Shown in pieces: positions 12,001-18,000 of a stretch of 24,000 nucleotides of DNA (position 1 is the stretch's first letter; each line of letters begins with the position of its first letter). This DNA is from an endosymbiont of Acanthamoeba sp. UWC8 (GTDB lineage: Bacteria; Pseudomonadota; Alphaproteobacteria; Rickettsiales; Midichloriaceae), in assembly GCF_000730245.1 (NCBI RefSeq), contig NZ_CP004403.1, positions 1,528,517-1,552,516 on the forward strand, in the 5' to 3' direction. The position numbers were made by a program.

Positions 12001-15000
12001 TGTTAACTAAAATCCCTTCCATAATCAAGTTTTTTGTCTTATAATGAGTTTAAAGATCGCTTTCTTCCTTGTATGGTTAAAAGTAAATAGAGTTACTATA
12101 ACTCATCTCTTATCTCTTTAGCTACCTTGTCTTAGAAAGTACCAAACCGAAATGAGAAGTGTATAAATATGCATGGCAGCAAAAGAGATATAAATGATAT
12201 TCCTCCGAAAAGTAGAAGGTTGGATTCAATAGGGGCTCTAATAGAAGGAGCTAACCCGTGTGGTGCGGCTTATTTTGACGGAAGAACATTATTGCTTGCT
12301 ACTAATAATAATATTGAATCAGAGCTGATAAGAGATATTAAGAGATTGCTTACTTATATAAGCGTAAGTTCGGAATTGCAGTATAGTGATAGAGAAAAGC
12401 CTGATTATTATGAGTGGAAAAATGAAGTTGTTCAAAACATAGATGATATAAAAGAGAAATACCGCCGTAGTTTTGAAAGTAAAGGTAGGTATTATAGGCA
12501 ATTTTCTGATGCATTAGAAAAAGTAACAAACTCAATAATACTTGCTTATTCAAACCCTAGTGATGAAAGAGCGTTTACCACAGGTTTTGTAAGAGCATTA
12601 GTCGAACGTAGATATGCCTTTATTGAAGGAAAGCAGAATGTGCATGCAGAATTAAAAATCATTCAACATCTTATGGAAGAGAAAAGAATAGGAAGAAGAG
12701 AAGCTGCTGAAGAGTCGATTTATATAGGAGTATCAAAGCGATGTTGCTTAAAATGTGAAAAGATGATTGAAGCTATTAATGAAGCAGCCGAAGAGATGGG
12801 GTTTAGTGCAATAGAGGAACTTATAAGCATAAGGGGTATACATAGACAAATTTTTCCTGCTACTATCCCGGATTTTATTGATTATAATAATAACATATTA
12901 GAAGAAGGATTTAGAAGGAATATTAGACGAAAATTTCTGGCAAAAATGGAAGTAGATAGCCTAAGCAAAGCATTTGCAATGAAGGGAGAGAGAAGAGTTG
13001 ACGGTAGAATACAAGTACATGAAAGATCGCCACACCTGCGTATAGGTTTAAAGAGGTAGAGGCGCCTGAGATACTAAGAGAAGTACCTGAGGTAGCAAAA
13101 ACAGAAGAAAGTGTTAGCTCTTCAAGCTATATTAGGGCTATACCGGAAGAAAGTGAAAAAGAAAAAGAAAAAGAAAAAGAAAAAGAAAAAGAAAAAGAAA
13201 AAGAAAAAGATAAGCCTATAGGAAATAAGAAAAGAAAGGGTAGAAATGAAGAAAGTGAAGAATTTAATGATGAGAAAACAGATAGAATAGGTAGACCAGC
13301 CAACCATGCAAAGAATAAAGAAGGTCACGTTGCTCAAATTAGACGATCTAGAATGGATAAAGGGAAGCAAAAAGACGACGGTAGATCTATTGGATAATAA
13401 AAAGTAGTTTTGCAATATAATTTTTATTTTTATATACTGAACGTTAAATGTATAAATTATTGATTTATTTAAGATAGTGAATTATAATGTTTTGTAAAAG
13501 ATAAAAAAGGTATAAAATGAAAGAAAGTCAAAAAAATGCTAGAGGCTTATGGTGAAGAAGGAATAGAATATATTAAATCTTTCTTAAAAAAGGGGGGAAA
13601 TATAAATGAGAAAGATGATGATGGGAGTGAAATGGGACTCCTTTATTATGCAGTTACTCGTAAAGATGCTAAGATGGTTGAGTTCCTACTGAAACATGAA
13701 AAATTAGATGTCAATTCCCAAGATTACTTTGGTACTACTGCTTTACATGTAGCTGCCCGTAATGGGTATATGGAAATAGCAAAGTTGCTTCTAGCAAGGG
13801 GGGCTGATGTCAATTTAACTGATAAAGAAGGGGAGACTCCGTTACATAACTCTATTTTAACTATGCATTGTCTTGAACTAATCCCTTTACTTATGGGACG
13901 TGGTGCTAATATTCATGCAAGAAGAGCAGAAGAAGGTAGTACAGTTTTACATTTAGCTGCCAGAACAGGTGAAGTGAAGATTTATAAATGCTTGCTTGAA
14001 TTTGGTGCTGATCCTGATATGCGTACTTTTGAATTAAAAGATATTGTAGATGGTGAGGAAGTAGTTACAAGGAGTTATTCTGCGAGAGAACTATACAGAA
14101 AACTATATCCCGAAAAAATACAAGAATTTGAAGCAGCTGAAAGGGAAGTTGAAATTGAAAGGGATAATAAGTTTCGAAGCATAATTACAGTTGGATCTAA
14201 GAAACGTGTAATTGGTTCTACAGAAACTCAAGGTATAGTTGAGGAAAATGGATATGAGCCTGAAGGAGAAGTAAATATAGAAAATTCTAGCAATATTATA
14301 GCTGAAAGAGGTTCAGCTGACTCATCACCTGATAAGCCCTCAGCAAATTCTCAGGGAAGCGTAGAAGGAAGATGGGTGAGTTCTATAGCTAAAAAACCTA
14401 GACTTAGTAAAGACTTTATAAATCCAGCTAATGATCAAGGAACCCAGCAATCAGTAGTTAGAGGGTCTTAAGGGGATTGCTACAAATGTCTTGCCGGTGG
14501 GGAGGGTAGGTGCTTAGGTTTAATAAATGCTAGGCTTAGATTCACCTTTTGTGACTAAAAGTATTATTAAAAAAATAAAGACTGTTTTTTAAATCAATAA
14601 GAACAGTCTTTTTTTATATATATGCTTTATTTATGTTTGATTACTTCTATAGCAATATAAATTTAATATATTTTAATATCACAGCAGCACCATAGCACAC
14701 ATACAAGTAATTTAACAAAATAACTATTGCAAATTTATTAAGCATTGTATTAAACCTGATATTTAAGATATTAGTTAATATTTAAAATAGTTTTAATGTT
14801 TTATTAATAAATAAGGATGTTACTCAGCATGTCTTATAATTTATACTGCTTACCTGAAGTTATTATTAGATTTGCCCGTAACCTTCCTAAGCAATCACTT
14901 CAAAATTACTTTAATTGTAGATTTCCTTTCCTCTCTAAAAACATAAATTGGGATTCTTCCCAAGCAGGCATCATGTATTCAGTCATAGAAGCAGCAAAGC

Positions 15001-18000
15001 AAATGGAGGAGAATGACCTTGCATTACTGCATGCCGATGCTGAACGCATACATGAGATGACGGATGAAGTAGGGCAAGCAGCTCTACTATCGGTAGTTAA
15101 CGACAAGAAAACTTATCAGGTACTTGGTAACGGTTATGATAGAGCTCTATGGTTACTGCTTAATGAATATACATCATTCTGCTGTGCTGAAGATATCCGT
15201 TACACTGATCATCATAGGTTAGGTAGATTGTGGGATGGGTTTTTAGGCTCAAAAAACCTGGAAGTTAAAACTGAGACAGAGCAAATAGAAGCTTTTAAAC
15301 AAGGGGTTATTAGCTATTTTAATATAGGAGGCAATATCAAGATAGAGCTATTCAGGTATACCCGTAACAATGCTAATAATAACTCCGAAGTTGTTCAGGT
15401 AATGTTATACCGTGAAGGATTACCTGATAACTACCTTGCTTTTGATGGAGAAGAGGTGGTACCGAGATTAATGCGTCCCGTGTATGAGATGGTATTGATT
15501 TATGAACCTACTACCGGCTGGATTGAAGTGATTGCTAAAGGGCGTGAATATAGAGAGGAGCTGGCTAAGTTATTTTCAATCTCTTTATTGCAAAGCCTAA
15601 TCGGTTGTGAACGTATTCCACTCAAGCGATATAATATAAACAAACTAAGAAGTTTTTATGACTTTCCGACTGATCCTGAAGATGGAATAGAGTCGGTTAA
15701 AGTAACTATGCTGGAGCTTAAAACATACGATAACAGCAGCAAATTAACATTTGAGGTTAGCTCTAAATCGGATAGTAATATATATGAAACTTTAAACAAA
15801 TGGTTTGATATAAATGATCCCCTTAGCCAAGGGGTTTTATTAAATAAGGTGAAATTATTAGTTCACTTCTTCCCTGATAAGGTAAACCCGAGAGGAATAA
15901 CATTACCAATCAAGATTACCTGGCCTAACGGATGTGATTTAAAGAGTAAAACTGAGAAAGAACGGTTAATAGGAGATAAGTACTTTTTGCGTTGGGGTTT
16001 ACTTGAGGAGGTCGATGGTAACAAGCATTAGCACTAAAGCAATTTGCTTATTGAATCAAATAATGTCTTCTCCAATCCCTGCAATTACCGCACAAAATTT
16101 TATTGAACATTTTTACTTAGAAGGCAAAGAACTATTAGAGCTTGGGGCTTTAGTACCTGCAGTACATTGTAAATATGTAGAAAATATATGTGATCATGAA
16201 GGGAGGTTAGTTGAAATCATAAGGCATGATAGAGAATTCAAATATTTCTCCTATACTTCGGGATGGGTTTCTGTTTCACTAGAAGAAATAACTTTATATC
16301 AGGTGAATACAAGATGGGTAGTAGAATTGGTAAAAGATAGCATTGGTATTACCTGTGCTACTTCAAAACAACTGGATGAGCATATATGGATACTGGGTGA
16401 GGCATGGCTAAAGCATATAAAAGTGCCGGTTATCCTGGCAAACAGCTTAAGACAAAAAGCCGTTTATGAAACATTATTAAATTATCTGCTGGAAAGACAT
16501 AGTAAAAGACCTGCATTAGTACTTACGCTTGATCTTAACTTACCGTCTTATATCACTTTACCTACAAAAAGCAGGCTTGTTACAATTCAGGATGCAATGG
16601 TTTTCAGCCATGAGAAGTTTAGCTTAGATATCTCATTTTTAGCGGAAAAGATGGGAAATAATATTGCACAACATGGATTTAGTAACGGATACAGAAATCT
16701 TAACTTAAACGATAAAACTTATAGATTCTCAAATCAACAGGCATCAATACTTGAGATATTAGATAAAAGCGGTTGTCCTATGCATAAGCATGAAATTACC
16801 GCATTATCGAACTCTATGCAAAATGATTTAAAAGGAATATTTAGAAAGCAGGGCAAATATCACCCGGCATGGGGAGAAGTTATTAAATACGACGGTAAAG
16901 GAAATTACTGGCTTGAATATTAATGGGCGATAAAAGCTTATAGTGCTAACACTAATTTTATTGCTTTATCGACATGCATCATTTCATGGTCAGATAAATT
17001 AGTTATATAGCTATCAAGTCTTATGTTATCTACAGTTCTAATCTGATCAAGCATTACCTTACCTTTTTGTCCGTTAAGCGTTATTAATACTTCAAATGGA
17101 TAAATTTTATCACAGGAAGAAGTAATAGGAGCAATAACGAATCTTCTTTTTAGCTTGTTTTGTATATTATTTGATATGATTAATGCCGGTCTTTTCTTCT
17201 TAGTTTCAGAACCTACGGTTGGGTCTAAATTTACCCAATATATATCACCTCTTACGATACTTTGAGACATAATCAGTGAGATTCTTTTTTAAAGTTCTTT
17301 TTTTCTAGTATTTCCTGATTAAGGATGTCCCAAATTTCACATTCTTCATTTCTATAAGGATCACTATAAGCTTCCTCATATGCTTTTAATAAAGAGTCTT
17401 CTTTAAGGCTTAGCTCCTTCTGAATGGAATTTGAAATAAATTTACTTATTTGTTGTGAGGGAACAAGTTCCTTAAGTCTGAAGTAAAGCTGATCATTTAT
17501 TGTTATTGTCACTTTCATCATAAACTTATTCATAATTAATCTTTAATAAATTATAACATATTTATGATATTTAGTAAATTTAAAGATTATCGATACTAGA
17601 TCAGATTAATGGGTTTGACTTAATACAAAACAACAAAGATTCACAAGACATAATTTTATATTTAAGTAGAATTATTATTAGAAACTGCATTTCACACCAA
17701 AAATCACACATCCGTCACACCGAGTTTCACACCACCCATATGCGATTATCCTCTTTGTCATGCTAACTGATTAATGAGGATTCAAAATGACCGACAAGCA
17801 GTTTTTAAACCAGATAGAAGTATCTAAGCGCTGGAGCATATCACCAAGAACATTAGAGCGGTGGAGGTGGCTCGGTACAGGACCATGCTTCGTAAAGATC
17901 GGAGGATTGGTACGTTATAAGCTTGAGGATGTAAAGCAATATGAGAATGATCATATACTAAGCAGTACATCCGAAACTTTCATACCCGCTAAACAAATCA

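Follow-up and report, generated by a model that had tools for sequence, protein, structure and literature searches.

What role is played by two overlapping genes of an undescribed family that lie ahead of the replication operon of a prophage-like element? The question is raised by a stretch of 24,000 nucleotides from an endosymbiont of Acanthamoeba sp. UWC8 (contig NZ_CP004403.1, positions 1,528,517 to 1,552,516 of the forward strand), here called the window. In it, gene A (14817..16031, + strand; an open reading frame, ORF, of 404 aa) is followed by gene B (16015..16923, + strand; 302 aa), and a group of short direct repeats precedes the operon downstream. An earlier examination of the same DNA, the sequence-only reading, had presented the pair chiefly as a defence or abortive-infection candidate, with a regulatory pair among the other roles listed; it is this last role that is now favoured, while the defence reading is left unsupported. 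The explanation preferred here, with moderate confidence, is that the two proteins A and B together activate transcription of the next operon, and are themselves under the control of a repressor, in prophages resembling Wolbachia phage WO and Acidithiobacillus phage AcaML1, and in islands derived from them.

The junction of the two genes (16005..16031, + strand) has the features of translational coupling. A GAGGAGG at 16005-16011 precedes the ATG of B at 16015, and the stop codon of A lies at 16029-16031, which gives an overlap of 17 nt as read from the sequence; these coordinates reproduce those first proposed. The ORF call for B is 16003/16015..16923, its 302 aa being counted from the ATG at 16015, and NCBI annotates A as 400 aa, implying an ATG start at 14829. 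The product of A shows 100% identity to I862_07360, a protein of the Acanthamoeba sp. UWC8 endosymbiont. Comparison of the window with a second copy of the pair, on an IMG/VR prophage contig (L088), gives dN/dS values of 0.09 for A and 0.18 for B, pointing to purifying selection on both and to their being real genes. The pair proposed from the overlap is also a true one across the family: a homologue of B directly follows A in 170 of 173 loci, the remaining three being loci where the contig ends at most 234 nt past A, and the start of B is no more than 60 nt from the A stop codon in 168 of 169. Homologous junctions are overlaps or 4-nt ATGA arrangements. A natural fusion of A and B, P0266 (687 aa), occurs in two assemblies with identical synteny.

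As had been suspected, the proteins belong to an undescribed family. Neither matches Pfam, NCBIfam or PADLOC-DB v2 (the last at E<=1), and profile searches, which also covered PDB sequences, assign neither to a characterised housekeeping or phage-structural family; A matches PHROG 37634, a family of unknown function, at 4e-79. Close relatives of A number more than 120. A profile search with A across 1.84 billion representatives returned 2048 clusters at E<=1e-3, nearly all of about 390 aa, these roughly 2,000 family clusters being defined at 50% identity. Relatives of A are found in 286 species genomes, mostly of Alpha- and Gammaproteobacteria, and in 206 IMG/VR contigs of about 35-60 kb each; almost all carriers are WO/AcaML1-like prophages and islands of Proteobacteria. 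A tblastn search with A and B against 50,697 phage records gave no match, and the pair was not described in any paper retrieved by literature searches on RdgC-like prophage regulators, PF14452 or AcaML1. Thus, the family is large, unnamed and uncharacterised.

AcaML1 itself carries a distant relative. Its gp6 (751 aa) is a fused homologue of A and B, recognised by profile hidden Markov models (HMMs; 5.8e-18 and 2e-4) and by hhalign at a probability of 97.5%. Because of this identification, a conclusion that AcaML1 is devoid of the pair, and that the pair is therefore accessory, was withdrawn. The gp6 gene (L168, JX507079, 3281-5536, minus strand; annotated as hypothetical) belongs to a leftward operon and lies between recombinase genes and gp7/gp8. 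A 750-aa protein in the left arm of L007 was considered as well and is unrelated to gp6.

Where the pair stands in these elements is as follows. In at least 50 loci, one strand carries a serine recombinase, DUF2924 and then an M78 peptidase and an XRE-type helix-turn-helix (HTH) gene, and the other carries (DUF2188), A, B, HTH_17, a 158-aa gene, AAA_24, a 177-aa gene, a DEAD helicase, a PD-(D/E)XK-like gene, a primase-helicase and a RuvC-like gene. In more than 100 prophages, A and B keep this fixed position and head the early operon. The AAA_24 protein of the replication module is 64% identical to that of AcaML1 and 54% to that of phage WO, which marks the module, by sequence, as being of the AcaML1/WO type. 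The elements are integrated and have serine or tyrosine recombinases. The mobile-element context seen at the outset is confirmed.

How might such a pair reach a promoter? The AlphaFold2 model of B (pLDDT 86.2) shows an N-terminal winged-helix-like unit, a beta-rich and alpha/beta middle region, and a C-terminal OmpR-like winged helix at about residues 228-300, in which the recognition helix is variable. As modelled, this last domain has the winged-helix fold with its C-terminal hairpin, and Foldseek matches it to the DNA-binding domains of CovR (probability 0.98; template-modelling score, TM-score, 0.54) and ArlR (probability 0.90), which bears out the winged-helix tail that had been suspected. 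The middle region follows a secondary-structure order that differs from (beta-alpha)5 in the model, and the nucleotide- or metal-binding core of beta-alpha-beta type that had been proposed there is unsupported by any search.

The presumed target of B lies ahead of the next operon. In the window, four direct repeats with a period of 11-12 nt occupy 17692..17734 (+ strand): TCACACCA at 17692, TCACACAT at 17704, TCACACCG at 17715 and TCACACCA again at 17727. This array, the predicted binding site of B, is followed by a putative activator-dependent core promoter and leader (17744..17789, + strand) that has a -10-like GATTAT at 17744-17749 and no -35, and then by the first gene of the target operon (17787..18020, + strand; ATG at 17787), which encodes a 77-aa AlpA/MerR-type HTH_17 protein (Pfam 9e-7). 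Genes for a 158-aa protein, AAA_24 (Pfam 8e-46), a 177-aa protein, a PD-(D/E)XK-like protein and a primase-helicase come next, in a synteny seen in more than 100 loci.

An equivalent array, with a period of about 11 bp, is present in essentially all loci of relatives at the corresponding place, immediately ahead of the downstream operon. HTH_17 begins 94-170 nt past the B stop codon in 110 of 125 loci. In an alignment of 76 distinct intergenic regions, a GC-rich hairpin and T-run are often followed by three to five direct repeats with a period of 11-12 nt, then by a conserved GCNAT box about 9 nt past the repeats (GCCATC, GCGATTAT, GCCATACT), and finally by a leader, a Shine-Dalgarno sequence (SD) and the start codon; a -35 element is not recognisable in this alignment. 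The GATTAT of the window belongs to the GCNAT box, in which we infer the position of the -10 element by eye. A strict detector finds the array in 73 of 165 loci, compared with 34 of 561 control windows, and in 64 of 113 loci the motif particular to the locus occurs as exactly one cluster, with a second site only in L020 and L116. No repeats were found upstream of A, and hence nothing points to autoregulation by way of the array. In many loci, an intrinsic terminator separates B from the array. Since no -35 is visible and such terminators intervene, A and B would activate a promoter that is otherwise silent.

B and the array are linked by their joint variation. B diverges far faster than A (E-values of its homologues to one B HMM run from 1e-15 to 1e-130), its recognition-helix variants including SVNTLAKAFS and GDQVRTLGKAFK, and the repeat motif differs among lineages in step with this helix across at least eight classes. 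For instance, an SSQ...VFR helix goes with TCACACC, a core present four times in the array of the window, and SQ(E/Q)GNKLR goes with TCACCCC. Likewise, SVNT(L/I)AKAFS accompanies TCCTACC, S(S/G)x..L(R/Q)xAF accompanies TTCTCYC, YDSDRIEDVFKD accompanies TTCCCCC and T(N/D)EELHRIMRN accompanies TCCCACC. TCCTCCC is found with two unrelated helices, GDQVR(T/S)LGKAFK and S(R/T)xRDxFK, both bearing Arg. At one and the same motif position, the base A is matched by Asn, and C/G by Arg in two independent solutions, a pattern that fits direct base contact by the helix of B. Because A is far more conserved than B, it cannot account for the changes in the motif.

If the array were instead part of an origin or partition apparatus, the repeats would be iterons or a centromere, B, with its two winged-helix units, would be the initiator or centromere binder, and A would be a clamp-like partner. 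Short direct repeats are indeed known as the octamer iterons of P4 type and the 11-bp repeats of R1 parC; moreover, the array adjoins the replication module in prophages, and A resembles the kinetochore proteins CENP-N/L. Nevertheless, this explanation is very improbable. The array is held at a constant distance from the -10-like box, the SD and the start codon, the 76 aligned regions show no AT-rich unwinding element in GC-rich hosts, A does not have an NTPase fold, and the elements are integrated. The array and pair also occur where no replication genes are near. At least nine gammaproteobacterial islands lack HTH_17 and any replication module within 10 kb, and in them A, B and the array precede an operon of Multi_ubiq (PF14452), a 177-aa protein and ThiF. 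This operon looks like one for ubiquitin-like conjugation and appears, from its sequence context, to be under the control of A and B. Loci with Multi_ubiq, the 177-aa gene and ThiF/E1 are L016-L018, L021-L023, L037, L054 and L170-L173 (e.g., L170, 8543-13491), and the islands around them have KAP NTPase, HsdR and tyrosine integrase genes.

A third cargo context is seen in L012 (Micavibrio sp. UBA1672), where the pair and array lie within 6507-19891. Upstream are a 757-aa UvrD-like helicase-looking ORF and a 142-aa ORF resembling a Vsr-type endonuclease, and downstream are three unknown genes and then ORFs that look like type I restriction-modification genes, all of them as read from translations. 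The array goes with A and B, and not with HTH_17 or the primase. In the Magnetococcales locus L014, the block of M78 and XRE on one side and A and B on the other is inverted, and the array remains at the HTH_17 promoter, which would suggest that A and B act in trans.

What, in turn, controls A and B? In more than 50 loci the XRE repressor gene is divergent from the pair, and the XRE-A intergenic regions of relatives hold a consensus TTGACA -35 between two palindromic operators. Given this promoter and its flanking operators, A and B are a repressor-controlled sigma-70 unit at the position that cro would occupy. The operators were noted at L041 (about 9615-9760), L056, L084, L001 and L026, one example being GTGTTCGATATA-N-TCGAACA. 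The gene that often precedes A is a small one of the DUF2188 family, and in L026 its place is taken by a small gene of unidentified function.

These observations suggest the following course of events. In typical relatives, the XRE repressor and the M78 (ImmA-like) protease would keep the strong sigma-70 promoter of the pair closed. Upon induction, A and B would be produced and the operon of HTH_17 and replication genes would fire. B would be the specificity subunit, its OmpR-like winged helix binding three to five direct repeats placed one helical turn apart; these repeats, which end about 9-10 nt before the -10-like box, would substitute for a -35 element in the style of a pho box. A, made in a fixed ratio with B, would be its partner as a co-activator, a sensor of DNA structure or a stabiliser, and the two would jointly turn on the operon downstream of the array.

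The same geometry could be read with the opposite sign, as a repressor or immunity module with a function like that of Cro or of a second repressor, in which A and B on the repeats occlude the downstream promoter until they are relieved. The last repeat ends only about 9 nt before the -10-like box, so that a bound protein could block RNA polymerase, and the pair stands opposite the XRE repressor at the cro position. This alternative is unlikely, however, as the promoter has no recognisable -35 and looks activator-dependent, and the terminators between B and the array insulate the downstream operon in a manner that fits a positive cascade. Furthermore, if the XRE repressor keeps A and B off in the lysogen, repression by the pair would leave the replication operon derepressed just when its silence is needed.

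A second layer of control may exist in the leader. An anti-SD arm, ATCCTC (17748-17753), overlaps the -10-like box and can pair with the SD, GAGGAT (17776-17781). Folding of the leaders leaves the SD fully paired in 34 of 45 (median z -2.0), and shuffled controls also often pair the SD. RNAalifold gave no consensus structure for the leader alignment because the stems shift register, and scans for Rfam families and tRNAs found nothing. With moderate support, transcripts from the array promoter would omit the anti-SD arm, and the SD would be sequestered in those that read through from upstream. Fold-back inhibition of this kind is known from IS10.

The contribution of A has to be judged from its predicted structure. 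The AlphaFold2 model (pLDDT 91.6) has an all-helical N-terminal domain at about residues 9-133, followed by an alpha/beta body in which the base and centre alpha/beta domains of an RdgC-type fold can be recognised as modelled. Foldseek against PDB matches this model to CENP-N (7pkn_N, E 2e-5) and RdgC (2owl_B, E 9e-4), both with a probability of about 1, to Iml3/CENP-L, also at about 1, and to a second RdgC structure (2owy_A) at 0.97; RexA is outside the top 50 PDB matches. Against BFVD, the matches are phage models named 'recombination-associated protein RdgC' from phiAxp-2, Enc34 and a Klebsiella phage (3e-4 to 8e-4). This likeness is confined to structure: the RdgC profile PF04381 matched neither A nor 45 family members, even at E<=10, and a profile search of PDB sequences with A did not find RdgC. 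RdgC, lambda RexA, YejK and CENP-L/N have been grouped as DNA-binding clamps of a single fold class (PMC11077077, PMC11229321). RexA, for instance, has an RdgC-like fold, binds DNA non-specifically, binds CI and aids the lysogenic-to-lytic transition (PMC11077077; bioRxiv 10.1101/2021.04.19.439022). On the basis of its model, A is probably a non-specific DNA binder that forms a ring or clamp. A more specific and tentative proposal is that A, as an RdgC/RexA-like clamp, senses the state of the DNA (for example damage, the arrival of phage DNA, or intermediates of replication or recombination) and licenses B to fire the promoter that has no -35; the two would then be a portable module wired to prophage lytic operons and to defence-type operons for ubiquitin-like conjugation.

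Could the pair nevertheless be a defence system in its own right? In a Rex-like system of exclusion or abortive infection, A would sense foreign or replicating DNA and B would execute or relay the defence, the array serving for autoregulation or for coupling to the prophage. A is in the fold class that, by published structure, includes RexA (PMC11077077), it lies in the immunity region beside a repressor, and the neighbours of the family include toxin-antitoxin (TA) and abortive-infection (Abi) cargo, the Multi_ubiq/E1 operon, KAP NTPase and type I restriction-modification genes. Yet such a role is distinctly unlikely. Searches of Pfam, NCBIfam and PADLOC revealed no effector-type domain in A or B and no nuclease, NADase or protease motif, and neither protein has a hydrophobic or transmembrane segment (maximum KD(19) hydropathy 1.1-1.2; 1.22 for B), so that a membrane protein of the RexB kind is lacking. 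The fixed place of the pair at the head of the early operon is also unlike the variable placement typical of morons, and the specificity of B, whose helix co-varies with the downstream array, appears to be aimed at the element's own promoter. It is on these grounds that the defence headline of the sequence-only reading is not upheld.

The TA and Abi genes, for their part, are insertions beside the pair. In the window, cargo at 16925..17671 (- strand) separates B from the array and comprises MazF at 16938-17270 (PF02452, PemK/MazF; 1.6e-30) and a presumed antitoxin of 86 aa at 17273-17533, which has no Pfam match. BLASTN of the window against L088 shows that these 747 bp stand in place of 145 bp in the sister copy, which does not have MazEF. 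MazF had been noted as abutting the pair, and it is real, but its adjacency is incidental: as the sister copy lacks the insertion, the TA module is cargo and not a component of the A-B system. In the homologue survey, TA and Abi genes do adjoin the pair, again as insertions in a hotspot and not as parts of it. Twenty-eight loci have insertions of 0.45-1.8 kb between the B stop codon and the array, mostly TA or Abi modules. Examples are AbiEii with AbiEi/DUF6088 (L019, L026, L027, L029, L053, L080 and L111, among others), RES with Xre/ParS (L028, L034, L097 and L098) and an HNH protein (L066), with unknown genes elsewhere.

Several points weigh against reading A and B as a repressor-controlled activator. 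Every step rests on computation, from sequence or from predicted structure. The start site and the -10 box were assigned by eye, so the choice between activation and repression depends on that assignment. The covariation between helix and motif is partly confounded by shared ancestry and has one exception, L148, and AcaML1 has no evident repeat array after gp6 or before gp9. With respect to the proteins, full-length B has only weak Foldseek matches (E 0.02-0.3; RitR and VanR 0.02-0.05), and its winged helix is not a member of Trans_reg_C (PF00486) at the sequence level, a search for that family having found 1 of 24 B members at E 0.12 and none of 32 C-terminal domains; the C-terminal profile of B against PDB sequences reached VanR at E 0.34. 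TM-scores of A with RdgC and CENP-N are low (0.17-0.31; 0.22-0.31 for RdgC), and the likeness is thus one of domains and topology and not of rigid shape, with a different relative orientation of the domains. The invariant residues of A (E125, E237, D286, D289 and C373) are acidic but for one Cys, and could mean catalysis and not plain DNA binding. Finally, the XRE/M78 repressor genes of relatives are absent upstream of A in the window, and the cascade therefore cannot run here as described.

The window copy of the element differs from its relatives in further respects. Upstream of A is an AT-rich spacer (14472..14816, + strand) of 345 bp, after the ankyrin gene. It had been taken for the pair's own regulatory region; the spacer exists, with a terminator-like hairpin and T-run at about 14568-14625, but a promoter scan of its + strand gave no clear sigma-70 promoter. 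It is 100% identical between the window and L088, although the adjoining A gene has a dS of 0.15. The two copies belong to a duplicated element (window 11629-16924, L088 5713-11012; 95.8% identity). Within this element and upstream of A are genes for an OTT_1508-like deaminase (12169-13059) and an ankyrin-repeat protein (13536-14471), a eukaryote-directed cargo reminiscent of the eukaryotic association module of phage WO. Between them, a hexanucleotide repeat, (GAAAAA)n, at about 13153-13208 (region 13060-13400) encodes an (EK)n run; this + strand frame runs on past the deaminase stop at 13059 and has no start codon of its own, and the tract may be an interrupted gene or one prone to slippage. 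The primase-helicase of the window (AAA_25 type) is split into 20506-21681 and 21678-22787 (391 and 369 aa). It is intact elsewhere, as a single ORF of 703 aa in L088 (14077-16188) and of 707-780 aa in relatives, and the window copy of the element may thus be decaying. Ahead of the element, positions 1-11575 hold a host-like surface-polysaccharide cluster with several glycosyltransferase-looking ORFs, assigned by appearance, then an ORF resembling an MFS transporter (8532-9749) and one like a sulfatase or phosphoethanolamine transferase (9947-11575), the duplicated element beginning at about 11629.

The pair occupies the decision point of a prophage lineage that is widespread and related to WO and AcaML1, and two hypothetical proteins now have a concrete, testable model in which the DNA sites and the recognition helix are predicted and natural variants of specificity are named. 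The analysis also brought to light a cargo hotspot, lying between B and the array, in which TA and Abi modules accumulate. If the activator model is true, proteins of the RdgC fold would turn out to take part in promoter control, a point of interest for lambda RexA, whose function has long been unclear; the succession of early genes in these prophages would be accounted for, and one would have a set of orthogonal activator/operator pairs to hand. Should A in addition sense the state of DNA, this would define a class of mechanism by which proteins of this fold act in transcription and would serve as a model of RexA at the lambda switch.

How does this pair compare with known systems? Modules of an XRE repressor and an M78 protease, such as ImmR/ImmA and CapH/CapP, have a counterpart in most relatives, divergent and upstream of A and B, with operators around the A-B promoter. 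They are the presumed input to the pair and not its homologues, and are absent from the window. T4 MotA/AsiA, a two-protein phage activator of promoters that have no -35, and lambda CII act early and bind repeats or boxes in the -35 region of promoters belonging to the next temporal class. Their similarity to A and B is one of functional analogy only, no structural or sequence relation being expected; A is DNA-clamp-like and not an anti-sigma factor.

Lambda RexA shares more with A, as the two match the same RdgC-like fold class and are both found in a prophage immunity region by a repressor, each in a two-gene cassette. However, A is about 120 aa longer and has an additional N-terminal helical domain, and B is a soluble winged-helix protein, whereas RexB is a small polytopic membrane protein. 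A and B are transcribed away from the repressor (divergent in more than 50 loci), whereas rexAB is co-transcribed with the repressor in the lysogen; to our knowledge, no exclusion phenotype is known for A and B, unlike for RexAB. RdgC of E. coli and of phages is the best structural match of A in PDB and BFVD, with no sequence similarity and low TM-scores. RdgC is a toroidal DNA-binding dimer that acts alone on RecA-dependent processes; by contrast, A always comes with B and a predicted cognate DNA array.

Finally, the C-terminal winged helix of B superposes on the DNA-binding domains of CovR, ArlR and VanR, members of the OmpR/PhoB group. B differs from this group in that it matches neither Trans_reg_C nor Response_reg in sequence and is devoid of a recognisable receiver domain, phospho-acceptor and cognate kinase, having an RdgC-fold partner instead. 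The presumed sites of B nevertheless resemble those of this group. Pho boxes are direct repeats that take the place of the -35 element, and the presumed B sites, direct repeats with a period of about 11 bp, stop about 10 bp short of the -10 and stand in for the -35. In effect, tandem repeats of OmpR/PhoB-type geometry, as predicted sites, co-vary with the recognition helix of B.

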